Shown here: positions 5,463 through 63,685 of the stretch, one piece after another | How positions within the stretch are numbered: position 1 is the stretch's first letter | How the letters are laid out: each line of letters starts with the position of its first letter | Source: an uncultured Gammaproteobacteria bacterium | GTDB lineage: Bacteria; Patescibacteriota; Patescibacteriia; Magasanikbacterales; UBA922 | DNA: 64,000 bases | Direction of reading: 5' to 3' | Assembly: GCA_965231005.1 (NCBI GenBank) | Contig: OZ246405.1 | Coordinates: 39,204-103,203 of the forward strand | Program-made: the position numbers and the translations under genes | Notes under the pieces: model-generated | The model's input: only the letters and a program-made list of their open reading frames with translations | What the model was told of the DNA's origin: nothing | The model's database searches: none

Positions 5463-5512
5463 AAAAGCCTTTATGGCTTTTTTAGCATTTATGGCTTTTA
5501 AGGCCTTTTTAA
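5463..5512. repeat. 9-bp periodic array AAAGCCTTT ATGGCTTTT TTAGCATTT ATGGCTTTT AAGGCCTTT
   Basis: Five tandem 9-mers with consensus A(A/T)GGC(C/T)TTT directly after the stop of the DUF4012 gene. Confidence 0.6.
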
Positions 5513-8055: not shown

Positions 8056-8099
8056 GTTCTTCGCTATTTATAGATATATTATACCATGAATCTGTAATA

Positions 8100-8290
8100 A
8101 ATAGCAGAAGAATTGGGTATAAACCGACTGCATTCAACACACCTCTCATTCTGTCATTGCGAGGAATGAAGCGAAAGCGTAATGACGAAGCAATCTAGTG
8201 GGAACTGCTAGAAAAATTCCAATGAGATTGCTTCGTCGCCCTACTGCCTATCGGCAAGTAGGGCTTCTCGCAATGACAGGAATCTTTTAA
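8100..8290. other. nested-palindrome structured element (possible cis-regulatory RNA or REP-like DNA element) in the leader of the DUF4012 gene
   Basis: Perfect 13-bp inverted pairs CTGTCATTGCGAG/CTCGCAATGACAG and GACGAAGCAATCT/AGATTGCTTCGTC, plus an internal hairpin GCCCTACTTGCC-GATA-GGCAGTAGGGC. Locally GC-rich. Confidence 0.4.
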
Positions 8291-8322
8291 TAAAAAAACC
8301 TCCCCCTGCTAAAGGGGAGGTA
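8290..8322 (-). terminator. intrinsic terminator of the GT4 gene (CCTCCCC-TTTAGCA-GGGGGAGG stem then T7 on the minus strand)
   Basis: The reverse complement reads cctcccctttagcagggggaggttttttt. Confidence 0.55.
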
Positions 8323-8341
8323 GCCGAAGGCTGGAGGGGGT

Positions 8342-9466
8342 TTACTTTTTTACGAGAAACTCCGAATAAACATCCAACGTCTCCTCTGCCATCCTTTTCC
8401 ATGAATATCTTTTCAACTCTTCTACACCTTTTTGTTTTAGTTCAAAACGAATATCCTCGTCTACAAGCGCACGTTCAATTGCAGAAGCAAATTGTTCATG
8501 GTCTTCTGGATCAGCATACAGTGCAGCTTCACCTAAAATTTCTGGGAGGCATGTTCTGTTTGAAGAAACAACAGGAACGCCATGACTCATCGCTTCAAGC
8601 GGTGGCAATCCAAATCCTTCGTACAAACTTGGAAATGTATAAAGTGTTGCATGTTTATAAAGAGTTAACAATTCATCATCACTAACAAAATCCGTATAAA
8701 CAACATTGTTACATTGTTTTATTTCTTCACTTTTTAAAAGTTTTTCATAAAAATAATTTTTCTTTCCAACGAGCACAAGTTGATATTCATCTTCAAATGT
8801 TTTTTCAATAATTTTCCACGCATTTAACAAACCTTTTAAATTCTTGTGTGGAAACGCCACTCCAACATACAACACATACGGCTTGGCAATATTAAACTTT
8901 TTCAAAACAGAATTATTTGTATCTTGTGTCTTATGATTTAAGTAGGCTTCATATGTGACACTCATCTTATCAAGAGAAACATTAAGTGTTTTGTGCACAT
9001 CTTGTCTTGTAAACTCACTTGGCGTAAAAATATGTTTTGCTTTTTTTACTGCATGAGCAAGCACTACTTTGTATGCAATATATTTGAATGCATAACGAAA
9101 CCACCCAAGCGTGCTTGCTTCACGAGTTGGATAATGCATGAGCAACAAATCATGAACAGTGACAACAAATGGATCATTATAAAACAGAGGTACGTTCCAG
9201 TGTGGAAAATGCATCAAATCTATTTGTTCTTTTTTGAGAATGCGTAAAAATCTGAATTGTTCTTCCCATCCATACCAATGTATGTCTGCAAGAACTTTTC
9301 GAATCTTTGGATGTTCTGGGACAAGCTCCCAATTATCTTTTTTTAAAAATAAAACATACTCATCATCACCAGACAGTGTAATAAGATGATCAATGAGTTG
9401 TTGCGTATACCGACCCAATCCCCCACATTGAGGACCAAGCATTCGTGCGTCTATGCCGACTCTCAT
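8342..9466 (-). CDS. glycosyltransferase family 4
   Basis: EGFGLPPLEAMSHGVPVVSS motif of GT4/RfaB-like enzymes. Confidence 0.8.
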   Translation of the reverse strand: MRVGIDARMLGPQCGGLGRYTQQLIDHLITLSGDDEYVLFLKKDNWELVPEHPKIRKVLADIHWYGWEEQFRFLRILKKEQIDLMHFPHWNVPLFYNDPFVVTVHDLLLMHYPTREASTLGWFRYAFKYIAYKVVLAHAVKKAKHIFTPSEFTRQDVHKTLNVSLDKMSVTYEAYLNHKTQDTNNSVLKKFNIAKPYVLYVGVAFPHKNLKGLLNAWKIIEKTFEDEYQLVLVGKKNYFYEKLLKSEEIKQCNNVVYTDFVSDDELLTLYKHATLYTFPSLYEGFGLPPLEAMSHGVPVVSSNRTCLPEILGEAALYADPEDHEQFASAIERALVDEDIRFELKQKGVEELKRYSWKRMAEETLDVYSEFLVKK

Positions 9467-9533
9467 ACATTGCGTTAATGAATAGAGTCAGCATAGCACT
9501 TGATAGCAGACGAGTCAAAAGAGAATGTGTTGC

Positions 9534-10202
9534 TTATATGTATTCCAATCCATCTGTTTTCTGGCATATGTGATCAAAGACGTCTTCTGGAATGTTCTCA
9601 TATTTTTCAAGAGAAATCATTTTTTTTGCCTGTTGTATCCAAGCAGCGTCATAACTCATGGCATTTTCAATATCTCTTAATTCATTCTTTAATTTATCAA
9701 CAGCATCTTTTGAAAAAAATAGTCCCCAACATTCTTGCTTTGCAATGTCTGCATGCTTCAAAACTCTTTCGTGTACATCTTTTTCTATTATAAGTTCCTC
9801 AATATGATCTTCAGTATTGTCAATCAATTCTTGGTGCTCTGAAATTGCTGATTCTTTTTCAATAACCATTTTTGCCAGAATAAACTGCCTTTTTTCTTCT
9901 TCTGTTTTTGGTGAATAATAATTATCTAGTGCCTCTTCGTATGCAAGACCAGCATACTCAAGTAATTCTACATCTGATTCTCTAAGCATAAACAATTCAA
10001 TCTGATGAACTGATTCTGCAGAACCTTGGTGTGCCCACTGATGCAACATACCTCGAATTGTGTCGGTTGTAGTTGAGTTATTAGAGGTATGATTTTCTCG
10101 TATACTATCTGATTTTTCTGTAGAGAAAGAAGCTGGTGTGTCTTGGATGAGATCTTTTGTGAGAAAAGAATGTTGAGATGTGTATATAATATTTCCCCCC
10201 AT
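9534..10202 (-). CDS. hypothetical protein (acidic, helical) within the polysaccharide cluster
   Basis: 222-aa ORF with no motif recognised. Confidence 0.4.
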   Translation of the reverse strand: MGGNIIYTSQHSFLTKDLIQDTPASFSTEKSDSIRENHTSNNSTTTDTIRGMLHQWAHQGSAESVHQIELFMLRESDVELLEYAGLAYEEALDNYYSPKTEEEKRQFILAKMVIEKESAISEHQELIDNTEDHIEELIIEKDVHERVLKHADIAKQECWGLFFSKDAVDKLKNELRDIENAMSYDAAWIQQAKKMISLEKYENIPEDVFDHICQKTDGLEYI

Positions 10203-10314
10203 ATAATTATTGTTATGAATACTATATCTAACTTACCAAAGAGGAAAAAACATGCAAAAAAATAGCCGAAAAAGGGCCATTTTTATCACTTTTGTTTAAT
10301 TTTATATATAAAAC

Positions 10315-11442
10315 CTACTTCTGAGCCACATCAGTAAGCAAGGAGAAAAAATCGGCTGCAGCATTATTCCAATTAAACTTCTTTGCCTGATCCAAACCTT
10401 TTTCGATGTATGTTTGTCTTACCTCCTTATCTGATGCGAGCAATTCCATACCCTGAATGATCTCTGAAATATTATATGGATTCACCAAATACGCAGCTGG
10501 ACCAACGACTTCTGGAAGCGACGAAAGATGACTGGTAATAACTGGTGTGCCTGCAGCCATTGACTCAAGAACTGGAAAACCAAATCCTTCATACAAACTT
10601 GGAAATACAAATACACTTGCAAGTGAGTAAAGCGTTTGTTTTTCTTCCTCAGTAACAAAACCGACGTAACGAATCCCAGGAGCAACACATGCTCGACGAA
10701 TAATATGTTTGCACTTCCATCCTTTTGGTCCTGCAATAATAAGTTCATACCCTTTACTCCTGAGCGAGCTCTGCTCAAATGCTTGAATTGCACCCAACAT
10801 ATTTTTTCTTGGTTCAACTGTTCCTAAAAAGAGAATAAATTTTTCAGGAAGATTATATTTTTGAATGCACTGTGATTTGTCAGACGTATCAATATCTTGC
10901 ACTGACATACCTGGTTGAACAACTGAAATTTTTTCTGAATCAATGTCAAAATAATCAATAAGATCATGTTTTGTATGAGCACTCGGAACAATAATATGAT
11001 GTGCGTTTTGACATTGTTGTTTTGGTCTTACCATTTTGTGCCACAGCAATCTTTTTTTAGAAAAAAATTCTGGAAAAAGTTCGAATGACAAATCATGAAT
11101 AGTAAGGACATGTTTTGTATTGGAAGAAAATGATGTGAAATGTAAATTTGGAGAAAAAAATAAATCAAATTCCTTTTTCATTATATTGTTGATCCGAGGT
11201 CTTTGAAACAATACCATTGAAGAATGTAGGATCTTGTTTGGAAATCGTGATGCAACAATATGAACATTGTCTTGCAAAAAATTTGGAATATATTCAGATA
11301 CATTTTTAAACGAATTATAGAAAAGATAATAATTATTTTTTTTATCAAGCGCAAACAAGGACTGTAATAGTCCCTGTGTATATTGTCCCACACCTGTTTT
11401 ATGTGGTGTTGCAAGACATCGTATGTCAATCCCGATGTTCAT
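10315..11442 (-). CDS. glycosyltransferase family 4
   Basis: PSLYEGFGFPVLESMAAGTPVITS motif. Confidence 0.8.
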   Translation of the reverse strand: MNIGIDIRCLATPHKTGVGQYTQGLLQSLFALDKKNNYYLFYNSFKNVSEYIPNFLQDNVHIVASRFPNKILHSSMVLFQRPRINNIMKKEFDLFFSPNLHFTSFSSNTKHVLTIHDLSFELFPEFFSKKRLLWHKMVRPKQQCQNAHHIIVPSAHTKHDLIDYFDIDSEKISVVQPGMSVQDIDTSDKSQCIQKYNLPEKFILFLGTVEPRKNMLGAIQAFEQSSLRSKGYELIIAGPKGWKCKHIIRRACVAPGIRYVGFVTEEEKQTLYSLASVFVFPSLYEGFGFPVLESMAAGTPVITSHLSSLPEVVGPAAYLVNPYNISEIIQGMELLASDKEVRQTYIEKGLDQAKKFNWNNAAADFFSLLTDVAQK

Positions 11443-11611
11443 ATTATAGGACTTATCTTAAAGGTGATTTTGTATCAGTTTTAGATCAGTTTTGAGTGAA
11501 AAAAACGAAGATTGAGGAATGATACCCGGTGGTATCACGACGAAATATGAGTTTTTTGCAGCCAACACTGGCTGAAAATGAGTCATGAATCACTTTTAAG
11601 ATAAGTTCTAT

Positions 11612-12742
11612 CTATCTATAAGAAATATCTAGTGCGCATTGGTTTAATCCTTGTTTAAACTCTTCATATCTGTGGTGAACATATTGTTGCATACGTGTAC
11701 GAAATGCATGTTCATCATATCGCGAAGCCCACTGACGAATTTCATGAGGATTCCATGCCTGAGCATCAAAATTAAGAAGAGCATCTAAAAGTGCTTCCCA
11801 TGTTTGTTCATAAAACAATATTCCTGTCTTCCCTGGAATAACTGTTTCTGTTGCTCCGCCAACACCATACGCAATAACAGGACGACCACAGGCCATGGAC
11901 TCAATTGGTGTAATGCCAAAATCTTCAACTTGTGGATGGATAAATGCTTTTGCACGACTGAGCAATTTTACTTTTCCTTTTTCATCAACACGCCCAAGAA
12001 ATTGAATATTGCTTTTCGCTTTCTTTTTTAAGCGCTCAAGTTCTGGTCCATCACCAAAAATTTTTAAATTCCAGCCAAGTCGATTGAACACATGCACTGC
12101 AAGATCAAATCGTTTATATGGAACAAGGCGTCCACCAGTAACAAAATAATTTCCAATGTTTGGTGCTATTGAAAAATCAGAAATAGTAATTGGAGGATAA
12201 ACAATATCACTTTCACGACGATAATACTTTTGGATCCGTTGACGTACGGTTTGGGAATTTGCAATAAAGTGGTCAACTCTGTCTGTGCTCATTTTATCCC
12301 ACAGCCGCAATTTATAAATAAGACGTGGCAAAAATGCTTTAATTGCTCTGTTGTATTTTAAGTCTGCAATATATTTGTGTGTGTCAGTCCACAGATATCG
12401 TGTTGGGGTGTGGCAGTATGAAATATGCAATGTTTCCGGACGAGTAAGGACCCCTTTTGCAAATGCACTTGTAGAAGAAACCACTATGTCAAACTCATCT
12501 AAATTATGACGCTCTGTTGCCAGAGGCATAAGTGGTAAATACCATTGGTAGCGTGTTTTTCCAAATGGAAGTCGTCGAATAAATGATTGACGAACTTTTT
12601 TTTCAGAAAATTGAGGAAGTTTTTTCTTGTCATGAAAAAGGACAAAAATTGGCGCATCTGGCCAAATTTCTTGAAACGCTTGAAGCACACGCTCAGCTCC
12701 TCCATCTTGTGACAAATAGTCATGTACAAGTGCAACTTTCAT
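11612..12742 (-). CDS. glycosyltransferase family 4
   Basis: EDFGITPIESMACGRPVIAYGVGG motif. Confidence 0.8.
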   Translation of the reverse strand: MKVALVHDYLSQDGGAERVLQAFQEIWPDAPIFVLFHDKKKLPQFSEKKVRQSFIRRLPFGKTRYQWYLPLMPLATERHNLDEFDIVVSSTSAFAKGVLTRPETLHISYCHTPTRYLWTDTHKYIADLKYNRAIKAFLPRLIYKLRLWDKMSTDRVDHFIANSQTVRQRIQKYYRRESDIVYPPITISDFSIAPNIGNYFVTGGRLVPYKRFDLAVHVFNRLGWNLKIFGDGPELERLKKKAKSNIQFLGRVDEKGKVKLLSRAKAFIHPQVEDFGITPIESMACGRPVIAYGVGGATETVIPGKTGILFYEQTWEALLDALLNFDAQAWNPHEIRQWASRYDEHAFRTRMQQYVHHRYEEFKQGLNQCALDISYR

Positions 12743-12744
12743 AT

Positions 12745-14163
12745 TTACTCAACTTTCCTTTTTTTCAACAGGATGAAGGGGGTTTTTAAAAAAATAATAA
12801 TATCGAGTGCAAGATTCCACCGTTCAATATATAAAATATCTAATTTCATTTCTTCTTCAAATGATAAATCACTTCGGCCAGAAATTTGTGCAAGTCCAGT
12901 AATACCAGGCTTAAGTGTAAATACATGCGGATACTTATCTTTGTATTGATTTACCTCTCGTGGCTGATGAGGACGAGGACCGACAACACTCATTGATCCA
13001 CCTAGAACATTGAAAAATTGTGGCAATTCATCAATGCTCCAGCGCCGCATAAACCGACCAAACCCTGTAACGCGAGGATCATTTCCTATTTTATAAATAG
13101 GGCCCTTGCGTGTATTTGATTTTTTAATAAGTTCTTGTTCTTTTTTTTCTGCTTCAGCTCCAGCTTTTCCAAATTGTTTTCCAGTAGAGAATTTTTTAAA
13201 CATGGAACGAAACTTGAGTGTATAAAATATTCTCCCACGAAGTCCAACTCGTTCATTTTTGTAAATAATTGGAAATCCAGTTTCAAACAAAATAATAATA
13301 CTGCTGAGTACAGTAATTGGGCTTGTAATAACAATGACAAACATACTTAAGACAATATCGAGCAAGCGTTTAATAACTCTTCCCCACGCGCCAAGTGATG
13401 TGCGTCGAAGTTCTACAATTGGCACACCACCAACAGGGTGAATGATCATGTTGCTTGAATATGTTGCAAATACATCTGCTGAATATTTAAATGTAACATG
13501 AAGCCGATCGCATGCTTCAATTGCCCGTAAAGCCTCTTTTTCATGTGCACGAGGATTTGCGAAGATCATTTCATCGATCTTGGTTTTTTTCATTTTGTTT
13601 TCAGCGTCTTCATTAAATGTTTTATATGTTCCAATGACTTTGAATCCGAGCTCTTTTCTTTTTGAAAGTGTTTGTTCAATTGTTTTTGCAACACTGTCAG
13701 ATCCAATAATAATAACGCGACGAAGACCAATACCCATGCGATACATAAGTCCTTTTAATCCTCGAATAAGAATTCTTCCAAAACTTACATACACAATAGA
13801 AAGAACCCAACCAACAGCAACAAGAAAACGAGAGTCAAACAATTCTTGTGTAAACATGATGTAGACTGCAACAGCACCAAGCCCTGCTGAGCATGCAAAT
13901 AAAATGCGTGTAAGATCATGACTCAATTTTCTGTTTGGATCAGGACGGTAGAGTCCAATGAGGGCAAACAACACAAGCCAGCTTAGTGCTACCCACGATG
14001 CAATCGATGTAAAATCAAAAAGACTCAAATCAAATAACACTGGTTTGAGTGAGACTGCCCAATCTGAAAAACGAAGTGCATATGCTGTAACTGCAGCTGC
14101 CACGAGCATGAAATAATCAACTGGAACCTGCAAAATCATCAATAAAATTTCAGAACGTTTCAT
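12745..14163 (-). CDS. polyprenyl-phosphate sugar phosphotransferase (WbaP/bacterial sugar transferase family; priming enzyme)
   Basis: N-terminal TM helices; C-terminal [18 protein letters not shown] ... [21 protein letters not shown] signature. Confidence 0.8.
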
Positions 14164-14267: not shown

Positions 14268-14672
14268 GTCTTGTTCATTACAGATGATCGATTTGGCCTC
14301 TGGCCAGATAGGAAAGTCCGAACTCTTCTCAATTTTATTGAGGTCGTGGAAGTGGGTAACACCCACCCACTGCATTGTGAAATGTATGTGAGGGACAGTG
14401 CCGCAGAGACAATACTAGTCCCGTCGCTCGTGAGCGACAGGACAAAAGGTGAAAAGTGTATAGAGGTTTTTGATCTCGAGTCAAAAGTTACTATACTCTA
14501 TCCTGTGGTGACACAGGTTAGTGGTAAACCCTTCCTAGAGAAAGAGCAGCGTTTTCCGTTTACGGGATTCGAAAAGTTAGCTCGTTACAGGTGTTTGGTA
14601 ACAAACATCGCAGAGAAATGATCATCACCCGCAAGGGTACAAAATTCGGCTTACGTAGTGGACAAGACAACA
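14268..14672 (+). ncRNA. rnpB: RNase P RNA (bacterial type A)
   Basis: P4 strands AGGAAAGTCCGAAC and ACAAAATTCGGCTTA show compensatory CCGAA/TTCGG changes relative to the E. coli GUCCGGGC/CCCGGCUUA. GGTAACACCCACC and CAGTGCCGCAGAGACAA match conserved RNase P blocks. P1 pairing GTCTTGTTCATTAC with GTAGTGGACAAGAC. Confidence 0.75.
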
Positions 14673-45908: not shown

Positions 45909-48827
45909 TTATTGACATGAGCCATTTATACAACTCTTTCCAGCAGCACATCCATCAATACAAAGCTGTGAACAAACACCTGCTGCAGATCCTGTGTAAT
46001 TCTTAATTGCGCGACAAAGTGTTCGTTCATTTCCTAATCCATACACTCTTGACTTTTCTGTAATCTTATTAAATGAATGCATGAATTTTTTTGAAATATC
46101 CATAACAGATATTCTTGTTGCTTTCAAAAGATTTGCAGAACCAGTATTTGAATGCGTTCCTCCACCAAAGTTACATCCAACTTCCTGATCAAAACCAGGA
46201 TCATTGAATGAACAATCCAATACACCATCTTTTCCACAGCCATTTCCAATTAAATCTGACCAAGAAGATTGTGAACATGCATTTGCTGGTGCATCATCAC
46301 ATACAATCTCGTTTACAAAATGTCCGCCTCCACTATATTTAAATTGTTTACAATAATTATCAAGATCGAGTGAAGAAGAGTGATATGTGTTTGGTCGAAA
46401 GTTTGGGGTATAACTCATTTTATTTTCCTTTACATATTCATCTACATTGAATAAATCGAAAGTATCAACGTATTCTTCACCTAAAAATCCAAGTTCATGG
46501 CCTAATTCATGAAGAACAACACGTCCTACTTGAAATTCTTTGAAACAAGTTGGAGCTGTTTTTGAAGCAAGACAATTCTTGAGTGGTTGACTTGCAATGC
46601 CAAATGTTACACCCTTGTTAAACGTACACTGTCCACTGACTGCTCTTGTCTGTACCTGTGTCAGTGAGTCATCATCAATCATTGCATAGAAAATTGTTTT
46701 TCCTTTGAAATTATGGCTCAAATACATTTCCTGACTCTTGGAAAGTTTTTCCCAGCCAAAAAAGATACTACTAAAATTCCCAAACTCCCATGTCGCTTCG
46801 TCGACTGTGAGTTTAGTATTGTACTTCCAAAAATTAAACTTATTCTTATTTGATTTTATTGGTTCAACATTTAGCAAGCTCAATTTTGCATCTGTTGTAA
46901 CGTATGAAAGGATTTGTTGGAACAAATTATCATCAAAACCAATATTTAAAAATACAATATTAACCCTGTTTTCATTTGAATTATTCTGCCCTTGCAGGAC
47001 TGGTGAAAATGTTCCTACGTTCATTGCAGGATAGACAAGGACATTTCCTCTGTACCGCCAACTGTCAAACTTTTCTACATCTGGATGATTCACTGGTGTT
47101 AATCCCCATCCAACATATGATGGATAAAAATCATATGTTTGTTTTGTTCCATTATTATTTGTAACAGTAAATGTAAAGTAAAAATAATATGCACCTTCGT
47201 CCAGTGTATATTTAAACGAATGGATCTGACCAATCTTAATATTGTTTAATGTTTGTTCATAGTAAAAATTCTCATCTGCAAATTTTGTTAAGCCAGCGGG
47301 GACTTCTGTTCCATTAGCAGCCGTTGGCTGATCCACAATCTTCATCGTTAGATCAATCTGTTTACTATTTGCAAGAATATCGTCTCTTACAATAGGAGTA
47401 AATGGCAAAATAATTTCACGACCTGCCACTTCGTACTGTGACCAATATGTTCCATTTGTATCAACCCGAGCTGGGAGCCTATTTTGTTGTGCAGCACTGC
47501 TTGGACTTTTCTTGAACGACTGTAGTGAATAAAGAGAAAGTGTTGTGTCTTGAACTAAATTACAATACCTATTTGGAATAAATTTTGTTATGTAGCCTGG
47601 TGCAGACGCAACAATAGTATGAATCTCGCTTTTTAATAAATTCCCATCCAACACAGCTTTCCCCTGACTGTTAGTTTTTGCAGTCATTTCAATATTTGAA
47701 TTTCCAAATGCAATATTAAATGGTGTTACATGCAATGGATCCATTTCACTATCGCGTCCATATACAGTTACAAGCGCATTTGAAACAGGTTGACCATTTG
47801 ATACAACTGTTATTGTTCTATTTGTCCACGGACAGCCCGTCTGATTCACAACAAACTGTTGATTGCTAGTCTGCTTTGTTCGTGTATCTTTAATTTGAAT
47901 TGTTGGTTGTGGTGTATCTACTTTGGTTGGTGGAGAAATTGTTTGTGTTGTCTGCGGCTTTTGCACCACACTTTTGTCTGCTGTGTTCGTAGATTTTTTA
48001 GCAGGAGTATTTTTGACCTGCGGTGTAGATTTTTGGACAACCGGCTGTTTTTTGACAACAGTCTTTTGTATTGGCTGAACCGTCTTTTGTGCAGGCTGTG
48101 TTGTTTTTACAAAACTTGAACCACCAGATCCAGTGTTATATTGTTCTGTCTTATCAATTACAACAATACGATCCCAACGAAACCCAAAAGAATTAAATTC
48201 TTTTTCATCTTTAATATGTTTTTTAATTTGTTTTGATGCATCTGTTGGATCTGGTTCAAGGCGATACACATCTGCAGAGTCAGGATATTTTACAATTGTA
48301 TAATTTGGATGACGATTCGTATAATTAATTTCTGAACCAGTAAAGTAATTATTTAATAATCTCTGATCAATATCCTCAATCCAATTCCATGAATATCCTA
48401 ATTTGTTAAATACTGACTCATCAGTAATCCAATATTTTTCATTTCCCAAAAGAAGATATACTTTTGGGTCATCAACCGTTTTTACAAGTGCCCCATATTT
48501 TGGATCATACAATGGCCCGGCCGGCATAAATCCTAGATGATCTTTTGGAATAGAAGCAAGCTCATAAGATGAAACGTGTGTGACTTCATTCCAAGAATAA
48601 AAATATGTGAAGTATTTCTTTGCTGAGCGGAATGGACGCTTTGTACATTGTTTTGTTATGTAATAGACTGCACTGCTATTTGGCGCCTTATATGCATTTT
48701 GCTCTGGCAATGGGCAGCCAACAGCTTGTGTTGATTGAAAAAAATACCCAAAAAACAAAAAAAGGCCTGAAGTAAAAAGAAGCCAATAAAAATATACTAT
48801 TTTTTTGCTTAAATTAGTCAAAAACAT
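45909..48827 (-). CDS. secreted large protein with a peptidase M64 (IgA-peptidase-like) zinc-binding motif, Thr/Pro/Gln-rich linker and Cys-rich C-terminus
   Basis: Signal/TM at the N-terminus; HELGHELGFLGEEY matches the M64 HExxH...DEY signature; 972 aa. Confidence 0.5.
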   Translation of the reverse strand: MFLTNLSKKIVYFYWLLFTSGLFLFFGYFFQSTQAVGCPLPEQNAYKAPNSSAVYYITKQCTKRPFRSAKKYFTYFYSWNEVTHVSSYELASIPKDHLGFMPAGPLYDPKYGALVKTVDDPKVYLLLGNEKYWITDESVFNKLGYSWNWIEDIDQRLLNNYFTGSEINYTNRHPNYTIVKYPDSADVYRLEPDPTDASKQIKKHIKDEKEFNSFGFRWDRIVVIDKTEQYNTGSGGSSFVKTTQPAQKTVQPIQKTVVKKQPVVQKSTPQVKNTPAKKSTNTADKSVVQKPQTTQTISPPTKVDTPQPTIQIKDTRTKQTSNQQFVVNQTGCPWTNRTITVVSNGQPVSNALVTVYGRDSEMDPLHVTPFNIAFGNSNIEMTAKTNSQGKAVLDGNLLKSEIHTIVASAPGYITKFIPNRYCNLVQDTTLSLYSLQSFKKSPSSAAQQNRLPARVDTNGTYWSQYEVAGREIILPFTPIVRDDILANSKQIDLTMKIVDQPTAANGTEVPAGLTKFADENFYYEQTLNNIKIGQIHSFKYTLDEGAYYFYFTFTVTNNNGTKQTYDFYPSYVGWGLTPVNHPDVEKFDSWRYRGNVLVYPAMNVGTFSPVLQGQNNSNENRVNIVFLNIGFDDNLFQQILSYVTTDAKLSLLNVEPIKSNKNKFNFWKYNTKLTVDEATWEFGNFSSIFFGWEKLSKSQEMYLSHNFKGKTIFYAMIDDDSLTQVQTRAVSGQCTFNKGVTFGIASQPLKNCLASKTAPTCFKEFQVGRVVLHELGHELGFLGEEYVDTFDLFNVDEYVKENKMSYTPNFRPNTYHSSSLDLDNYCKQFKYSGGGHFVNEIVCDDAPANACSQSSWSDLIGNGCGKDGVLDCSFNDPGFDQEVGCNFGGGTHSNTGSANLLKATRISVMDISKKFMHSFNKITEKSRVYGLGNERTLCRAIKNYTGSAAGVCSQLCIDGCAAGKSCINGSCQ

Positions 48828-53147: not shown

Positions 53148-53534
53148 TTATGCCCAGTATCCCATGTAACTAAGCCAAAGACCAATGATCAGAGTAAATA
53201 AAATTGCAAATCCAGTCCACCAAGATTTCTTTGCTTGTTTTTCAGACCAACGAATAAATGAGTCTGGCCACACCATAAAGATTATTCCTTTGATAACAGC
53301 TCCCCATCCAAATAAGGTAATAAGACCCTTGTAACTCCATTCCCAAATGTTGTGAACATTTACCATTAAGAGTCCAATAAGGAGTGCAAACATAGAAAAT
53401 GTCCAGACAGCCCCATCACTTTTTTTAAAATGAGCGACTAAATCCTTGTACATGTTTTTGTTTACAAGAAATGCAAGCGCAATCACTAAATAAAACGGAC
53501 CAAGGATGCGAGCGAGAAGCATTGATGTTTCCAT
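53148..53534 (-). CDS. hypothetical membrane protein
   Basis: Four TM helices. Confidence 0.45.
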   Translation of the reverse strand: METSMLLARILGPFYLVIALAFLVNKNMYKDLVAHFKKSDGAVWTFSMFALLIGLLMVNVHNIWEWSYKGLITLFGWGAVIKGIIFMVWPDSFIRWSEKQAKKSWWTGFAILFTLIIGLWLSYMGYWA

Positions 53535-53578: not shown

Positions 53579-53628
53579 TGAGAGCTTTTAAGGCCTTTTA
53601 AGCTTTTATAGCCTTTACGGCATTTTCT
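53579..53628. repeat. 9-bp periodic array (GAGCTTTT AAGGCCTTTT AAGCTTTT ATAGCCTTT ACGGCATTTT)
   Basis: Read directly; abuts the stop of the 1742-aa gene. Confidence 0.6.
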
Positions 53629-56600
53629 AGAACCAGTCCATTGCTTTTGTAACAAACATAAATGAGTTTGCAAGGGACTTCATAATCTTGAAGAATTGTG
53701 ATACTCCTGGTGTTTCGTCAAATGGAATACTTGAACCAAGAGAACTGAAACTTGTATTTACAGAAGAATCACTATTTGATGCACAGGAGCTTGATTCATA
53801 ACTGCTCCAGCAATATCCATTACACCATCCATAACCAGCACCAGTACAGTCTGATTCTGTGTAACAATAGTTGTAATTTGATGAACAATCTGTTGATGTC
53901 CACTGAGAACTGTCACCATTAGAAGAACTACTGCCAGAATTAGAGCCGCAGGAGCTTGATTCATAACTGCTCCAGCAATATCCATTACACCAACCATAGC
54001 CAGCACCAGTACAGTCTGATTCTGTGTAACAATAGTTGTAATTTGATGAACAATCACCAGATCCAAAAGTATTACTATCTGATCCACTACCACAGTCATT
54101 TGGACAACTTCCACTGCTCTCTCCTGATTCACAAGTTCCATCATTATCACATGCTGAAGAATATGAGTCTGACGATGTATATGAGCCTTCCTGACAGCCA
54201 GTTGGACAACCATTGTCATCCCACTTACACCACTTGTCAGATGAACTTCCGTATTTACAATCATCACAAGAATTTGGTGAGCTACATGTCACTCCTGCTT
54301 TTACACAGGAACCTGTTTGACTGTTGTACTCCCAGCCATCCCATTCACTACATGAAGTGGACCAACTATCCCCTGTTGAACCTGAACTAGTAGATCCTGA
54401 TGATGAACCAGATGAATCTGAACCTGAGCTGTGAGATCCAGATGTTGAACTTCCGCACCCCGTTGCACAGCCACTACTATCCCAAACACATCCATCAGCA
54501 CATAAAGTTGAGTCACAAATTTTATCACCAGTAAAATTATTATATTGATTCAACTTACATGCAGGAGGTGCCTTACAATCTTTTGGACAATTTTCAACTG
54601 TCTCCCCATCGTCACATGTAAAGTTGTAGTTACATGGATCCTTTGGCGGTTCTTCTACAGGTGGGACATAATCTTTGTACTTACATCCTTCAGAACTAAA
54701 CCATTTACATGATGACTGTGCAAAACATGAAGAGTCTGTTGAGTAATCATCACAGTTTACAGTGGTTGGATCTGGCGTCGTGCTTGTTTCAGATGGACAA
54801 TTATCTTCATGATAATTTGATCCGTTTGTTAGATAGCCAGGATAGTTATAATCACATTTTTTCTCATTATTTAACTGACAATATCGCACGCCTGCGCTAT
54901 CCCATCTACTGTACGCAAATCCTGGACACGAATCTTTATCACCTTCATATACTCCACCAGAACAGTCTGCATAACAAGATTCTTTTGTTTCTCCATTATC
55001 ACATGTGCCATTTCCACAAGAATTTCCTGAAGAATAATCCTGACAACCAGTTGGACAACCATTGTCATCCCACTTACATGTAAGACCAGAAGAAGATCCA
55101 TATTTACAACTGTCACAGGATTTTGGTGCACTACAGGTCACACCTTTTGTAATACATGATTCTGTTTCTTTATTATATTCAAACTTCTCACCACAAGAAG
55201 GTGTGCCACTACAATCACTACAACTATCATATGTTTCTCCTGAATCGCAAGAACCATTATAGTTACAACTACCATTTTCTACAAAGTCCTGAGGACAGTT
55301 TGTTGCATCATAGTTACTTCCATTTGTTAAATAACTTGGATAATTGTAATCACACTTGAATTCAGTATTTAGCTGACAATATCTTTTACCAGCTTTATCC
55401 CATTTACTATATGCAAATCCAGGGCAGGAATTCTCATCACCTTCATATTCAGTCTTCTTACAATCAGAAGCACATGTGTCTAATTCTCCTGGAGAGCAGA
55501 TATTATCTCCACAAACATAGTCGCTAGCCCCTCCTGTACAATTAGGTATACCAAATGTTTTCCAGTTTTTATCATTACCAGCATCTGGCATCCAATAAAA
55601 TTCTGATTTTACAATTTTTTTACACTCTGCTGCAATACCAACAATATAACTGTTGTATTCACTGTCAGTTCTATCTAGAATATATGACGATTCAGAATCA
55701 CCATCGTAGAAATACCATGTATATTTTACCCACGTAGGTTTGTCATCTTTTTTCTCTACTAAAATAACATCAAAATGATCTTTACACGCTTGAATCATTT
55801 TTTCTCCAGCATCAGTTCCTCTTGCTTCACAATGTGCTACACCCTCTTCATTTGAATACACTGTTATTCCATCTGGGAATGTGTATCTAAATGGATCTGG
55901 TTTTATTTCTTCATCTTTTTCACATCTATCTGGAATGGAACAACCTTTCTCATCAGTAGTATATACAGTATGTGTTCCTTCAGGACAATACAACATGGTT
56001 GTATAATTACATACCACTTCTTCTTTAATACATTCTCCAGGAATCCAACAGCCATTGTCACTTTTAACTGGCTCACGATAAAAACCAGGAGCACAAGGAG
56101 CTACATAATATTCTGGACAAGCTAAAATTTCTTTTTCTTCACATTTTTGAGTTTTAAAATTGTAATACTTTCCATATCCACAATCATAGTCCTTTGGTTC
56201 ACATTTGTTTAAATGATCATCATAGTAAAAACCATCATCACAATGCTTATAATCAAATGGAACACAGTCACGAGCTTTTTCATCCCATCGATATCCTTGT
56301 TTACAATCTATTGAAGTTGTTTTATGGCATTCTGGAGGATAAATAAACTTTGCTTCTGCTTCATCATAATATCCTTCACATTTGTCTTTTTGATCTGGGA
56401 CACAGTAAGAAAGATCATAATCCCAGTGCATTCCCCAACCACAATTTTTAAACTCTACTGGTGGAACATAATATGGATCTTTTACACATTGTTTTATTTT
56501 TGCATCATAGTAATGTCCAGGTTGACAATCTATAAGAAAATCATCATACGTGACACAATAGCCTAGTCCATAATCCCAGTACCCTGGTGGCTGACATTCA

Positions 56601-58855
56601 GGATGATCTTCAACTTGAATTGCCCACTCACATCCCTTTACACTAGAATTTGCTTTACAATATGCATCACATTCTTCAGGCGTTTTACATAGACCAGCCA
56701 AAGGATTATTCTCTCTGTGTTGAATTTGTTCTGACTCAATTCTATTACGTTCGCGGATCAAATCGTCTGCTAGGCGCTCTTTTTCATGACGTAAATCTTG
56801 TTCTATAAACTGAAGTTGAATTTGTTGACAGACATCGTCACACCACGGATCAAGTTTGAGACGTTCTTCGAAAATCTTCTTTTGCTCTTCATATTTTTTT
56901 GTTGCAATTTCGTATCTGTCGTCAATTTTCTCTTCCCACAATTTCTTACGCTCTTCAAAATCTTCCCAATCAACATCATTTAATTCTTCCCAAAATTTTT
57001 CTTCTTCTTTTCTTTGCTGTCTATCAAATTCATGATGAAGTTCTCTCTCACGAAAATCAAGGGAAGCTCGTGCTATATCTCTCTCCTTTTCAGCTCGTCG
57101 TTCTTCCATCTTTCTTCTCTTAAATTGGATAGCATCTTGGAACCCATCGTCATTATTTCTAATTTCATTAATCACAAAATCTGGAACATCAAAAAATCGT
57201 TCATGGAACTTGTCAAAATCTTCTGGCTCAACAATATCTTGCATATGTCGTTTGAACCGTTCAGCATTCTTTTTTGCAAACTCATCAACAAACGAATCTT
57301 CAAAGTGCAAATTCTCAAATACTGCTATGTCTTCTGGATCAAGAGTTGTAACACGATTCCAAAACTTATCTCCTTCTCTTTTGAATCGTTCTTCTGTCTT
57401 GTGTTGCATGTCTTGCTCAAGTTTTTCAAGAAATGCTCTTTTTGTTGGATCTGACTTTACTTCTTCTTCCAATTCTTGGAGAAGACGGAATGTTTTTGGC
57501 GTTGGATTTTTTGTCATTTCTTCAGAAAGTTTTCTAAACCGCTCTGCTTGATCTTGTGATTCTGAATCTTTAAATTCACTTACAAATGCATCCAAAGATT
57601 GTTTTTCATACTCTTCCATGATTCGGAATTCTTCTCTTTCTGAATCCATACGAGAACGGATATCACTCATCACATGAAGATCATTTACGTCTTCTCTATC
57701 AAAATTCTCAAAGAATGTTTCTCGAATACTCTCTAATTCAAGCTTTTCTTCAAAATTTCGTACAGCAATTTCTTTTGCTTCTTCTATTGCATCTATCATA
57801 TCGAGCGGAATTTCTGCATTTTGTTTAATATGCTCTAAAATACTCATGAGTCGAACCTCATCAGCACTTGCATGCTCAACATATTGCTCAAACTTATCTG
57901 CGCGAACAGCTGCTGGCAACTCTTTTATACTTACTTCAAATCGTTCAAGTGTTTTTCTTCGTGCGTTTTCAATTGCATCTTTTGCTGAATCTGGCACACG
58001 ATCATGAATTACTTCAAGTACCTCCAGATGTTTCAATTCTTTAAATTCAGATCCTGTTTCCTTTTCTAAAACCTCAGTAATACGATCACTCACATCTTCT
58101 GAAGAATCTTCAACTTCCAAAAGAACCTCTGTCAAATCTTCAATGGCTTCTTCTTTTGTCTCTTGGACTTTTGCAACAACTCGTTCAAGACCTCGCGCAG
58201 CATTTTCACCATCTTCTTGCTTTCTCTGTTCAATTTCCTCAAAAATTCCTTTTCCAATAGTATCTAAGAGTGTTCTCCCCTTTAATTGTTTTTCAGTGTA
58301 GTCATCTAAAAATCTTTCAACATCTTCTGGCTGTTCATCTTTTATGTCTTTGAGTCGTTCTGCTGTTCTAGATGCTGATCCAAGTCTTCTTTCAAACTGA
58401 TCAATCATATCAGCACGAATATTTTCAAATCCTTTTTCTTCTGCCAACTGGTGAACTTCTGCAAGATGTTGATTTGCATGCTTGAACTTTAACTCTGCAT
58501 CCTTTACAGGATCAAACGTGAAAAATTCCTGCATGTTCCAACCAAACCGTTTAAATGCATGAAGTGGACTATCTGGCAAAATACGTGCACGTACAGCATC
58601 TAAGTCTTCAGGCCTTACAAATTCATCTTTAAGAACTTCCGGAGGAGCCTCAGTCGACTCTGATGCCACTACAAGTTCTCCAGCAGTTTCTGTTGCATTT
58701 GCTTGACTAGCTTCATCAGTGGTTTGTGCATGAGCTGGCAATGCAATAAATAAAAACGCAGCAATTATGATGCTGCAAAAAAGAAAATAGCGGGCACGAA
58801 ACAAACAAACGATGAGAGAGTTTGTGTGCCATGCCTTATTCAGACGTAAAAACAT
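53627..58855 (-). CDS. giant secreted cysteine-rich repeat protein (1742 aa): signal peptide, ~650-aa Glu/Arg/Lys-rich helical region, then multiple Cys-rich modules
   Basis: Hydrophobic N-terminus. Repeated C(D/E)xGE(T)xxxCxxDC modules. Duplicated ~130-aa units (PGFAYSKWDKAGKRYCQLN.../PGFAYSRWDSAGVRYCQLN...). Near-identical tandem units DCSSNYNYCYTESDCTGAGYGWCNGYCWSSYESSSC at the C-terminus. Confidence 0.6.
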   Translation of the reverse strand: MFLRLNKAWHTNSLIVCLFRARYFLFCSIIIAAFLFIALPAHAQTTDEASQANATETAGELVVASESTEAPPEVLKDEFVRPEDLDAVRARILPDSPLHAFKRFGWNMQEFFTFDPVKDAELKFKHANQHLAEVHQLAEEKGFENIRADMIDQFERRLGSASRTAERLKDIKDEQPEDVERFLDDYTEKQLKGRTLLDTIGKGIFEEIEQRKQEDGENAARGLERVVAKVQETKEEAIEDLTEVLLEVEDSSEDVSDRITEVLEKETGSEFKELKHLEVLEVIHDRVPDSAKDAIENARRKTLERFEVSIKELPAAVRADKFEQYVEHASADEVRLMSILEHIKQNAEIPLDMIDAIEEAKEIAVRNFEEKLELESIRETFFENFDREDVNDLHVMSDIRSRMDSEREEFRIMEEYEKQSLDAFVSEFKDSESQDQAERFRKLSEEMTKNPTPKTFRLLQELEEEVKSDPTKRAFLEKLEQDMQHKTEERFKREGDKFWNRVTTLDPEDIAVFENLHFEDSFVDEFAKKNAERFKRHMQDIVEPEDFDKFHERFFDVPDFVINEIRNNDDGFQDAIQFKRRKMEERRAEKERDIARASLDFRERELHHEFDRQQRKEEEKFWEELNDVDWEDFEERKKLWEEKIDDRYEIATKKYEEQKKIFEERLKLDPWCDDVCQQIQLQFIEQDLRHEKERLADDLIRERNRIESEQIQHRENNPLAGLCKTPEECDAYCKANSSVKGCEWAIQVEDHPECQPPGYWDYGLGYCVTYDDFLIDCQPGHYYDAKIKQCVKDPYYVPPVEFKNCGWGMHWDYDLSYCVPDQKDKCEGYYDEAEAKFIYPPECHKTTSIDCKQGYRWDEKARDCVPFDYKHCDDGFYYDDHLNKCEPKDYDCGYGKYYNFKTQKCEEKEILACPEYYVAPCAPGFYREPVKSDNGCWIPGECIKEEVVCNYTTMLYCPEGTHTVYTTDEKGCSIPDRCEKDEEIKPDPFRYTFPDGITVYSNEEGVAHCEARGTDAGEKMIQACKDHFDVILVEKKDDKPTWVKYTWYFYDGDSESSYILDRTDSEYNSYIVGIAAECKKIVKSEFYWMPDAGNDKNWKTFGIPNCTGGASDYVCGDNICSPGELDTCASDCKKTEYEGDENSCPGFAYSKWDKAGKRYCQLNTEFKCDYNYPSYLTNGSNYDATNCPQDFVENGSCNYNGSCDSGETYDSCSDCSGTPSCGEKFEYNKETESCITKGVTCSAPKSCDSCKYGSSSGLTCKWDDNGCPTGCQDYSSGNSCGNGTCDNGETKESCYADCSGGVYEGDKDSCPGFAYSRWDSAGVRYCQLNNEKKCDYNYPGYLTNGSNYHEDNCPSETSTTPDPTTVNCDDYSTDSSCFAQSSCKWFSSEGCKYKDYVPPVEEPPKDPCNYNFTCDDGETVENCPKDCKAPPACKLNQYNNFTGDKICDSTLCADGCVWDSSGCATGCGSSTSGSHSSGSDSSGSSSGSTSSGSTGDSWSTSCSEWDGWEYNSQTGSCVKAGVTCSSPNSCDDCKYGSSSDKWCKWDDNGCPTGCQEGSYTSSDSYSSACDNDGTCESGESSGSCPNDCGSGSDSNTFGSGDCSSNYNYCYTESDCTGAGYGWCNGYCWSSYESSSCGSNSGSSSSNGDSSQWTSTDCSSNYNYCYTESDCTGAGYGWCNGYCWSSYESSSCASNSDSSVNTSFSSLGSSIPFDETPGVSQFFKIMKSLANSFMFVTKAMDWF

Positions 58856-61456: not shown

Positions 61457-63685
61457 CTATGCTAATTTAATATGTTTAAGACGAAGAGCATTTAATACAA
61501 CAGAGATACTGCTCATTGCCATTGCAGCTGCACTAATTTCTGGATTTAAGAATCCTAATGCAGCAAATGGAATACCAACTGTATTGTAAATAAATGCCCA
61601 AAATAAATTTTGTTTAATATTTTTGAGTGTACGAGCTGAAAGTGAAATAGATTCTGACGCTTTAAATAAATCACCTTTTACTAAAACAATATCGCCTGTC
61701 TCAACTGCCACATCAGTACCTGTTCCCATAGCAATACCAACATCTGACTGGGCAAGTGCAGGAGCATCATTTATTCCATCACCAACCATGGCAACAACCT
61801 GACCACTTTTTTGTAGTTCTTTAATTGCGTTTACTTTGTCTTCTGGCATCACTTCTGCACGGACTTCATCTATACCAACTTGTTTGGCAATTTCTTGTGC
61901 AACAGTTTTATTATCGCCTGTAAGCATGATTGTTTTAATGTCTTGCTTTTTTAAATTGTTAATAGCATCTTTTGATGTTGTTTTGATTCCATCTTGTACT
62001 GCAAAAAATCCTAAAAATTTTGTATCTACAGAAAAGCCAATAATCGTGTGACCTTTTTTTGCATATGAATTAATATCTTTTTCACTTGAATCAAAAGCAA
62101 CAGTATGTTCTTTAAGAAAATTTATACTTCCAACTCGATAAATTCTTTGTTGATGTTCTCCAACAATCCCTCGCCCTGTTACAGCCTGAACATTTTTTAA
62201 AGAAATGCTGTCTTTTATGTTCTTTTCTTTTTCTGCCCATGTAACAATGCTATGTGCCAAAGGATGTTCTGATTGAAGTTCTAAACTGTAGGCAACATTT
62301 AAAAATTTGTCTGCATCTTTAGAAACACCAACCCAATCTTGAACTTCTGGCTTCCCTTTTGTAATTGTACCTGTTTTGTCAAAGGCAACCGTAGTTACTT
62401 TATGCATTTTTTCTAAACTTTCAGCATCTTTGATTAAAATTCCAAGTCCTGCTCCACGCCCAGTACCTACAACAATCGAAATTGGTGTTGCAAGCCCAAG
62501 TGCACAAGGACATGCAATAATAAGAACGCTGACTGTATGTACTAATGCTGTAGGTAAATATCCTGCGACAAAGAACCAACAAGAAAATGTCACTATTGCA
62601 ACAATAATGATTCCCCAGACAAAATATTTTGAAACAGTATCCGCCAATTTTTGAATTGGCGCACGAGACATTTGTGCCTCTTGAACTAGTTTTACAATTT
62701 GAGCAAGCACTGTGTCAGACCCAACCTTTCTTGCCTCCATAGTAAATGTTTGATTTTTATTCATTGTTGCTCCAATAACACTGTCTCCAACATATTTTTC
62801 AACTGGGATACTTTCACCGGTAACCATAGACTCATCTATTGTTGCTGCTCCCTCGATAATGATCCCATCGACTGGAATCTTTTCTCCTGGCTTAACCAAG
62901 AGCTTATCACCAACGACTACCTCTTCAAGAGGAATGTCCTTTATATTATTTTTTCCAAAAACTTTATGAGCAATCTTTGCAGATAACTGCATTAATTTTT
63001 TAATTGCTTCTGATGCCCTTCCTTTTGCCTTCGCTTCTAGATACCGACCAAATAAAATAAAGGTAATAATGATTCCTACATCCATGAAATATTCAGGCTG
63101 AGTTGGATCGAACAGTGTTGTGTATGAAGAATATAAAAATGCAGCACTTACTCCGAGTGAAACAAGCGTATCCATATCTGGCCCAAGCCGCAGCAAAGAA
63201 GGAATTCCTGTTTTGAAAAATTCTTGTCCAACAAATAGCACTCCAATTGAAAGGACAAGCATCAACATCCTGTCATTGCCTGTATCAATGCCGTACATTA
63301 AAAGAAGTATGAGTGCAGACAGTATTGCTGCTATTACGACTTTTTTAAAACGTTTCTTTAGTGCAACTTCTCCTTCAGCTTTTGCATGAGCAGAATGATC
63401 TCCATGATTCATATCGTGATGGGTATGATTTTCTTCTGAGGATTGCTTTCCATGAATCATGGCTGTATACCCCGTCTGCTTTATATTAGAAATAATATCC
63501 TCTGGTGAAAGCGTTCCTTCATCAAATTCAACCTGACCTTGTTCAAGCGCAAAATTAACACGTGCATCTTTTACACCTGGCATTTTTTTCAAGCCAGTTT
63601 CAATCTTTGCAACACAACTAGCACAATGCATGTCTTGTATATGTACTTGTATTTTTCTTGTCATATGCAAATACTTAACCCCCAC
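61457..63685 (-). CDS. copA: copper-translocating P-type ATPase
   Basis: N-terminal HMA domain [14 protein letters not shown] motif ([12 protein letters not shown]), DKTGT phosphorylation site, [10 protein letters not shown] hinge. Confidence 0.9.

Follow-up and report, generated by a model that had tools for sequence, protein, structure and literature searches.

A giant modular cysteine-rich protein of a Patescibacteria bacterium with a predicted helical-repeat scaffold and a variable array of small modules

We analysed a 64-kb stretch of contig OZ246405.1 (the window), in which the open reading frame (ORF) 53627–58855 on the minus strand encodes a cysteine-rich product (the window protein). 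On balance, we think that it is probably a modular binding protein that a Patescibacteria (candidate phyla radiation, CPR) bacterium exports by the Sec route and keeps associated with its envelope. A DUF5667 scaffold would be its lineage-constant part, self-interacting or envelope-retaining, and would keep the protein at or within the envelope of its own cell; the last ~1000 residues, at the C-terminus, would form a chain of small, independently folding, disulfide-cross-linked modules. Such a chain may serve as an extended, protease-resistant, outward-facing binding array, with glycans or the surface of another cell as possible ligands. Attachment to a host or partner cell, or to glycans, is a plausible specific role and the most natural one, in line with published proposals for large exported CPR proteins. 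The array would evolve by intragenic recombination, its modules being duplicated, homogenised by gene conversion and deleted in frame, and a 165-nt pair of terminal modules, together with a variant that carries one copy, may be the most recent example of this process.

The gene codes for a real, intact protein. An earlier note on this DNA had described a 1742-amino-acid ORF, and we find it as a single frame free of internal stops; a frameshift, which the note had named as grounds for doubt, is present in neither of two assemblies of the locus, and the indel between them is in frame. The product is as Cys-rich as claimed, with 100 Cys (5.7% overall): two in the N-terminal signal region, two in a loop at residues 672/676 and 96 within residues 723–1691. 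Cys make up 9.8% of residues 717–1692, against 0.61% in the window's other large ORFs. No feature of the opposite strand and no Rfam match overlaps the gene. All named relatives come from metagenome-assembled genomes (MAGs) of Patescibacteria, in agreement with the note's picture of a reduced-genome bacterium with a giant exported Cys-rich protein. The gene is laid out below, with repeats mapped by windowed protein self-comparison and structures predicted with AlphaFold2 (AF2; pLDDT, predicted local distance difference test).

53627..58855, minus strand: complete gene, 1742 amino acids plus stop (ORF list, translation, collinear homologs, identical NCBI protein P0182)
58724..58855, minus strand: Sec-type signal peptide, residues 1–44, cleavage presumed (sequence, family alignment, AF2 helix 12–36)
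56708..58723, minus strand: alpha-helical-repeat scaffold, residues 45–716, ~670 residues (Pfam PF18915, AF2, relatives)
55904..56707, minus strand: NPLAGxCxTPExCxxYC cap, then two-Cys beta-hairpin array, residues 717–984 (regular expression, Cys counts, AF2)
55532..55903, minus strand: alpha/beta 'mid' unit, residues 985–1108 (AF2 pLDDT 83–97)
55286..55531, minus strand: modules A1 (CGDNICSPGELDTCASDC) and B1 (CPGFAYSKWD...CDYNYPSYLTNGSNY...CP), repeated by A3 and B2 at a 166-residue offset
55037..55285, minus strand: modules A2 and C1 (...CKYGSSSGLTCKWDDNGCPTGCQ) (self-comparison, Cys counts)
54788..55036, minus strand: modules A3 and B2, with the second CPGFAY (74% nucleotide and 71–76% amino acid identity to A1/B1)
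54452..54787, minus strand: modules D, A4 and F (CKLNQYNNFTGDKICDSTLCADGCVWDSSGCATGC) (F at AF2 pLDDT ~86)
54356..54451, minus strand: Ser/Gly-rich Cys-free linker, residues 1469–1500 (AF2 pLDDT <50)
54086..54355, minus strand: modules C2 and A5, repeating C1 and A3 at an offset of 283 residues (849 nt)
53936..54085, minus strand: module E1 unit, 6 Cys (near-identical core 53948–54055)
53780..53935, minus strand: module E2 unit, 6 Cys (near-identical core 53783–53890; one 165-bp unit is missing in the public contig L001)
53630..53779, minus strand: Cys-free tail, residues 1693–1742 (S-rich linker, then amphipathic helix VSQFFKIMKSLANSFMFVTKAMDWF)

The N-terminus fits the signal peptide that had been claimed for it: a basic n-region and an 18-residue hydrophobic helix (YFLFCSIIIAAFLFIALP) are followed by AHA|Q, and F34 and Q44 are invariant in the family alignment. 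Judged by its sequence, this segment resembles a Sec signal, and signal-peptidase I would cleave the protein at AHA|Q. The following part matches DUF5667 (PF18915) at residues 92–245 (58121–58582; E 4.1e-8, 34 bits versus a cutoff of 27), as do 16 of the 16 homologs scanned, placing the window protein in this family. When residues 68–716 were modelled with a 23-sequence alignment, AF2 returned an all-helical structure (pLDDT 84, predicted template modeling score (pTM) 0.74) of 29 helices of 4–56 residues with short loops between them. The nearest folds in PDB are designed helical repeats, TPR and HEAT/importin solenoids, with low template modeling (TM) scores. The long charged helical stalk proposed in the note is thus replaced in the model by packed helices forming a solenoid-like scaffold rather than one long coiled coil, and 'alpha-helical-repeat scaffold' better describes the prediction. 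With 29 helices separated by short loops, at a pTM of 0.74, the prediction does not match the class of coiled-coil stalk proteins, which have a single long continuous helix or coiled coil. The sole stalk-like part consists of the last three helices (56, 36 and 43 residues), which close the scaffold together with a conserved DPWCDxxC loop. This DP[WF]CDxxC loop (56828–56842, residues 672–676) lies between the last long helices; its P670, C672, D673 and C676 are invariant across the family, and residues 672 and 676 are the only Cys pair within the helical scaffold.

Downstream of the scaffold, the order is cap, hairpins, alpha/beta unit, A1-B1-A2-C1-A3-B2-D-A4-F, Ser/Gly linker, C2-A5-E1-E2 and tail. 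The hairpins follow the motif C-x-x-G-x-Y/W-Y/W-D-x5-C; residues 717–984 hold 26 Cys and are modelled as beta-hairpins at pLDDT 60–84. The mid unit, made of an 'FxYTFxDG' element and a 'TWxFxDG...RTDxEY...FGIPxC' domain, is the only part of the array that AF2 folds confidently as a globule; it has no match in Pfam or PDB, and its domain recurs in otherwise unrelated Patescibacteria proteins (P0029, P0032, P0036, P0042). Five A modules of the form C..GE....C..DC are present, in line with the C(D/E)xGE(T)xxxCxxDC modules noted before. The number of Cys is even in every module (4, 4, 8, 6 and so on), which together with the Cys content of 9.8% gives the array the look expected of extracellular disulfide-bonded domains. 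At the end of the chain, residues 1719–1741 form the predicted tail helix (AF2 pLDDT ~50).

Known domains account for little of this architecture. The whole protein (E<=1), nine separate segments (Pfam, E<=10) and module-rich homologs were scanned against Pfam and NCBIfam, and DUF5667 was the only robust match. NCBIfam gave no family at E<=1 for the window protein. The searches for TIGR02232-like repeats and DUF11 suggested by the note were run and revealed no affinity: the Myxococcus cysteine-rich repeat TIGR02232 was unmatched here and, at E<=0.1, in P0002, P0003, P0005 and P0008, and DUF11 was unmatched in Pfam at E<=1 and in the segment scans at E<=10. Pfam contained no match to RTX, Big, Cadherin, Ig-like or other known adhesin repeats or to a sortase signal; neither Pfam nor NCBIfam scans revealed a surface-layer (S-layer) or S-layer homology (SLH) signature; and Pfam, NCBIfam and PDB sequence and fold searches found no catalytic domain. 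Scanned as one segment, the whole Cys array matched no Pfam or NCBIfam model above threshold and had no PDB relative. The family profile, the Cys-rich segment and the B-module profile were each searched against PDB sequences, and the only matches were to Kazal domains in homologs. A Foldseek search of PDB gave nothing significant for the array (E>1e-3, TM<=0.06), the top non-significant matches being megalin/LRP2, TNFR2 and ErbB2, which likewise consist of small disulfide modules in series; the top match in BFVD was a giant-virus ChtBD2 protein (TM<=0.1). Residues 717–984 scanned alone did match CBM_14 (PF01607) at 23.4 bits versus a cutoff of 22.1, summed over five partial stretches (profile positions 21–47 of 53), each matching the model's central hairpin; we take this as a lead and not a classification.

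The internal repeats differ in age. DCSSNYNYCYTESDCTGAGYGWCNGYCWSSYESSSC is encoded twice, at residues 1600–1636 and 1655–1691, within two E modules whose cores of 36 codons each (C1601–C1636 at 53948–54055; C1656–C1691 at 53783–53890) differ at 2 of 108 nucleotides, both synonymous, with a period of 165 nt (55 codons). A probe of 32 nt taken from this core has two exact matches in the 64 kb, with 0 expected by chance, and no further copy that could act as a diversity-generating template was found elsewhere in the window. The near-identical pair reported by the earlier note at 53760–53900 and 53935–54075 is therefore real; its spacing is not, since those intervals imply 175 nt and the actual period is 165. 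The note's second pair, CPGFAY modules at ~850 bp, combines a peptide and coordinates that do not belong together and merges two separate duplications. CPGFAY-containing B modules (55293–55448 and 54795–54950) have a period of 498 nt and 74% nucleotide identity, and the ~849-nt spacing belongs to module C (54189–54229 and 55038–55078, encoding CKWDDNGCPTGCQ), with 55–58% amino acid identity over ~65 residues. Self-comparison accordingly pairs A1+B1 with A3+B2 (166 residues), C1+A3 with C2+A5 (283 residues) and E1 with E2 (55 residues); the five A modules match one another more weakly, as do the hairpins.

Near-identity is limited to the E pair. The B and C pairs carry many synonymous differences and are for this reason old duplications kept by purifying selection, not the very recent ones proposed earlier. 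Nor are the E repeats perfect: identity is 98% in the Cys-bounded core and drops to unalignable in the Ser-rich flanks. In the eight codons downstream of the cores the residues are similar (C-G/A-S-N-S-G/D-S-S), while 9 of 24 nucleotides differ, with TCT versus AGT used for Ser. Since the core is nearly identical and the flanks have diverged, the E duplication is probably older than its core identity implies. We infer that the core was later homogenised by gene conversion or precisely re-duplicated at the module boundaries.

The terminal repeat also differs between assemblies. The closest database protein, P0001 (ENA ERZ930061, MEGAHIT contig k127_79047, here L001), has 1687 residues, one 55-residue unit fewer, and is otherwise identical. 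Over 16.3 kb, L001 departs from the window by a 165-bp deletion and only two mismatches, both inside the retained copy. This copy joins the upstream flank of E1 to the two variant bases and the downstream flank of E2, the switch falling within a 56-nt run exactly common to both, and the indel spans exactly 55 codons, leaving the reading frame intact. The E2-specific variants are T at 53834 and A at 53828, read on the gene strand. The two-copy form in turn holds a 57-nt linker (encoding GSNSGSSSSNGDSSQWTST) and two copy-specific synonymous bases, all absent from L001; because of this unique linker and these bases the window form is not a collapse. The copy in L001 reflects either real unequal crossover or replication slippage, or an assembler jump, that is, a collapse in L001. 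The assembly-collapse risk raised in the note was thus apt, with the qualification that it applies to the one-copy L001 and not to the window.

That the tandem in the window should itself be an assembly artefact, the true gene having one copy, is extremely improbable. A public contig with one copy in an otherwise identical sequence would fit such an artefact, but the linker and the copy-specific variants cannot be assembler inventions, and the in-frame loss of exactly 55 codons also speaks against it. The identical 1742-residue protein, P0182, is moreover recorded on an NCBI contig of 1,232,850 bp, about as long as a near-complete Patescibacteria genome, and the chimeric single copy is what collapse or crossover through the 56-nt run would be expected to give, so that any artefact sits in L001. 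The contig index held no exact product for the window protein, although the cluster table lists it as P0182. An exact DNA probe and a protein search revealed no further strains in Joint Genome Institute (JGI) metagenomes.

The family shows a similar mode of change. Homologs are collinear and about 1400–2230 residues long, and the named relatives are MAGs of Candidatus Magasanikbacteria, Jacksonbacteria, the Parcubacteria group and the Patescibacteria group. Clear relatives are also present in records (TPA_asm MAGs) that bear the title 'uncultured Gammaproteobacteria bacterium', probably in error (L003, L004, L007, L011 and L013). Searched exhaustively, the scaffold alone (residues 45–720) yielded 942 representative clusters at E<=1e-3, and 113 remained at E<=1e-30. 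Some 30 clusters contain the whole scaffold, with lengths of 1300–2100 residues, and its identity to that of the giant relatives is 45–53%. The scaffold lies near the N-terminus in all 942 representative clusters, and the C-terminal parts vary, being Cys-rich, Pro-rich or other. Having the full scaffold, the cap and the array, collinearity with the relatives and the invariant Cys framework of the alignment, the window protein belongs to a giant DUF5667 plus Cys-array subfamily.

Among the giant relatives, module counts range over 1–18 for A, 0–11 for F, 0–9 for E and 0–2 for B. Proteins ~80% identical to each other differ mainly by indels of whole modules, such as a 63-residue F+A block (10 Cys) or a 45-residue F (6 Cys), and homologous genes contain internal nucleotide repeats of 71–91% identity. 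Rapid evolution, as the note had put it, is thus visible in the Cys-rich part as gain and loss of whole modules. On the strength of these module indels and internal repeats in relatives, the E-module difference appears to be the newest case of the family's usual mode of change.

Kazal-type serine-protease-inhibitor domains occur in 10 of 16 relatives (P0003, P0004, P0006, P0007, P0009–P0014), between the hairpin array and the later modules (family profile versus PDB, E to 6e-6). The Kazal core C-x-PVCG-[ST]-[DN]-G-x-TY-x-N-x-C was searched for in the window protein and is not present there.

On the chromosome, the giant gene is surrounded by genes for arginyl-, tyrosyl- and valyl-tRNA synthetases (ArgRS, TyrRS, ValRS), GroEL-like and YidC-like proteins, NusA, RNase P RNA and a tRNA, and by a glycosyltransferase/sugar-transferase cluster and an HMA-type P-type ATPase. 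Synteny is loose: downstream of the gene, L004, L006 and L007 have a methyltransferase and NusA, whereas a P-type ATPase is found upstream of the Magasanikbacteria ortholog (L002). No conserved partner gene or dedicated secretion system was found at the locus. The envelope-polysaccharide cluster (5509–14163, minus strand) comprises a DUF4012 protein, three GT4 glycosyltransferases and a Bac_transf sugar transferase. The ATPase belongs to a copper-type homeostasis cluster 3–5 kb upstream of the giant gene (61457–63685, minus strand; L001 1–3670), to which L001 adds a CsoR-like repressor and a DUF411 protein; the ATPase upstream of the Magasanikbacteria ortholog is homologous.

These comparisons bear on two other functions. 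The protein might be a structural envelope component, an S-layer-like or wall-spanning scaffold in which the Cys modules would provide rigidity and protease resistance, and not an adhesin. We consider this rather unlikely. A conserved scaffold found in 942 clusters, a partly syntenic chromosomal locus among housekeeping genes, Kazal-type domains in several relatives, peptidoglycan-binding domains in proteins that share the B module and a glycosyltransferase cluster for envelope polymers in the same window would all suit it. The module repertoire, however, varies greatly even at ~80% identity, which would be unusual for a lattice-forming protein, and the Pfam and NCBIfam scans gave no S-layer or SLH signature.

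Quite improbable, in our view, is a released soluble sequestering factor, either a protease inhibitor or decoy or a Cys-based protein binding or scavenging metals. It draws on the Kazal domains of homologs, on the proximity of the copper-type cluster and on the AxA signal-peptidase site, which could free the protein. Yet a Kazal domain is missing from the window protein itself, the even Cys number of each module suggests disulfides and not free metal-binding thiols, and the metal genes are on separate transcription units and only partly syntenic in relatives.

Two elements of the putative binding protein also occur in proteins without DUF5667. They are located as follows.

55286–55456 and 54788–54958, minus strand: B modules of ~55 residues (conserved across P0028–P0042)
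53630–53705 in the window: C-terminal helix tail (also in P0002–P0015, P0028–P0030, P0032, P0037, P0038, P0041 and P0042)

The B module has the consensus Y-x-G-D-x-x-S-C-P-G-F-A-Y-S-R-W-D...R-Y-C-Q-L-N...C-D-Y-N-Y-P-S-Y-L...C-P, with 22 of 60 positions, many of them aromatic, invariant over 18 copies; the 17 other copies are 54–70% identical to the first copy in the window. It occurs in many exported Patescibacteria proteins without DUF5667 (P0028–P0042), some of which have PG_binding_1 or Kazal domains and one of which (P0042) is labelled Nanoarchaeota; in most carriers, BLASTP identity is 58–78% over ~9% of the query. The B-module profile found no relative among PDB chains, and Pfam holds none. 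A homology search with the same profile returned one fragment only, the word index being weak for 60-residue queries. The C-terminal helix is a Cys-free amphipathic segment of ~20–25 residues, basic and aromatic, that follows an S/T/G linker (FFKIMKSLANSFMFVTKAMDWF in the window protein). Such tails end most complete relatives as well as unrelated B-module proteins (for example, FFRRLGSLLYAMITLPARAFGL and LLEAARSLLEVLQVPNLFER), and no NCBIfam CTERM model matches them. Speculatively, this helix could be a peripheral membrane anchor or a lineage-specific sorting signal.

A bolder idea, which we put forward tentatively and hold to be unlikely as a whole, is that the scaffold, the swappable Cys modules and the C-terminal helix form a surface-display system specific to Patescibacteria. 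The helix would then be an unrecognised C-terminal sorting or membrane-anchoring signal common to many exported CPR proteins, including those without DUF5667, and the ~55-residue CPGFAYSRWD...CDYNYPSYL module would be a domain devoted to binding a ligand, perhaps a glycan or peptidoglycan, with which episymbionts grip their hosts.

The intact ORF, the family with its range of taxa, the predicted fold of the scaffold, the even Cys numbers of the modules, the whole-module indels among relatives and the chimeric make-up of the one-copy allele are shown here; export, disulfide formation, surface retention, the binding function and the ligand are inferred. Several observations weigh against an envelope-associated binding protein. 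AF2 modelled residues 715–1742 poorly (mean pLDDT 57, with hairpins, F and C2 moderate), and its model of the E repeats, at pLDDT ~30, is unusable. The CBM_14 match is fragile, being gone in the whole-segment scan and absent in 16 homologs. No LPXTG-like motif was detected in the C-terminal region, whose tail is amphipathic and not transmembrane, and the protein has no second transmembrane segment; since no anchor motif is recognised, surface retention is unexplained if the signal peptide is cleaved. A partly syntenic locus near nusA without partner genes suits a structural housekeeping role no less than an adhesin, and the one-copy allele may have been made by the assembler and not by biology.

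Other features of the window are side observations. A short tandem repeat (CTTTTAAGC-like, 3.4 copies in plus-strand reading) occupies 53585–53616, directly after the stop of the giant gene and before the gene at 53148–53534. The RNase P RNA (14272–14668) follows the polysaccharide cluster in a locally GC-richer stretch. ORF 2–460 (plus strand) is the C-terminal end of a gene running off the start of the window, with 24 Cys in 152 residues and a Pfam match to Dicty_CTDC (E 5e-8). At 45909–48827 (minus strand), a 972-residue exported-looking protein carries a VVLHELGHELGFLGEEY zincin (HExxH) motif and a Cys-containing C-terminus, with only 2% Cys in the ORF, and L001 contains this gene too. Pfam gave neither an M64 nor any other peptidase match for it, and PDB gave no sequence relative; despite the HExxH motif, its membership in M64 is therefore unsupported. 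The related architecture that the note had seen in these two ORFs is one of composition only: they give weak, composition-driven matches to the giant protein, neither is demonstrably its homolog, and ORF 2–460 has different repeats.

Much of bacterial diversity belongs to the Patescibacteria, whose cultivated members live attached to other cells. To our knowledge, how most of them recognise and hold their hosts is not understood beyond the type IV pili of Saccharibacteria. The gene described here is a well-defined example of a constant helical scaffold joined to a swappable, apparently disulfide-rich array, and it can be dissected module by module. Being short, highly conserved and common to many exported CPR proteins, the B module and the mid domain are practical targets for expression and ligand screening. 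The one- and two-copy alleles offer a concrete locus at which to study variation in the number of surface modules in natural populations, and they also call for caution with short-read assemblies of such genes.

Part of this picture is already known: the protein is in public databases as an unnamed hypothetical, the scaffold is a Pfam DUF, and large, strain-variable Cys-rich exported proteins of CPR bacteria have been described. New here are the module map, the prediction of a solenoid-like scaffold, the finding that the B and mid modules are conserved and mobile, the C-terminal helix that recurs among these proteins and the precise in-frame difference of one module between two assemblies. The literature searched contained no paper mentioning DUF5667 or PRJEB17505.

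Comparison with known systems begins within the family. The DUF5667 protein HYY51_04370 from a Candidatus Magasanikbacteria MAG (P0002, 1981 residues) is collinear over 92% of the query and shares the signal peptide, the ~700-residue scaffold, the cap, the hairpins, the mid domain, modules A, B, C, E and F and the amphipathic tail. It differs in its overall identity of only 38% and in the number and order of its modules (10 A, 3 F, 2 B, 1 C and 1 E); the tandem near-identical E pair is specific to the window lineage.

Large extracellular Cys-rich proteins, with Cys at 7.2 +/- 2.4%, were reported from CPR Peribacteria, with attachment as their proposed role (Anantharaman et al. 2016, PeerJ, PMC4736985), and an attachment role was likewise proposed for large exported CPR proteins in PMC7143001. 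The likeness to the Peribacteria proteins is one of description: a CPR host, a length above 1000 residues, a signal peptide, high Cys and strain-level variation. By the same description, the window protein falls into the class of large CPR Cys-rich proteins, with its 1742 residues, 5.7% Cys, signal-like N-terminus and one-/two-copy variant. The weak similarity to Myxococcus Cys-rich repeats and the FG-GAP annotations reported in PMC4736985, however, are both absent from it. Myxococcus TIGR02232/DUF11 proteins resemble it in having Cys-rich repeats with acidic residues and differ in that no such model matches the window protein.

Among eukaryotic and viral disulfide-module ectodomains, peritrophin-A/ChtBD2 (CBM14), low-density lipoprotein (LDL) receptor/megalin and TNFR/ErbB furin-like repeats are likewise built as beads on a string of 15–60-residue modules with even Cys, and the hairpin motif C-P-x-G-x-x-[FYW]-[DN]-x5-C is similar to the hairpin at the centre of CBM14, although none of them gives a significant structural match to the array. 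The binding protein that we favour would work along the same lines as the giant repeat adhesins of cultivated bacteria, namely LPXTG-anchored MSCRAMM-type proteins and the RTX adhesins of type I secretion systems (T1SS), which also combine a long spacer or scaffold with a distal repetitive binding region whose repeat number varies between strains by recombination. Unlike these, the window protein has no LPXTG, would be exported by an N-terminal Sec signal and displays putatively disulfide-rich modules in place of Ig-like ones.

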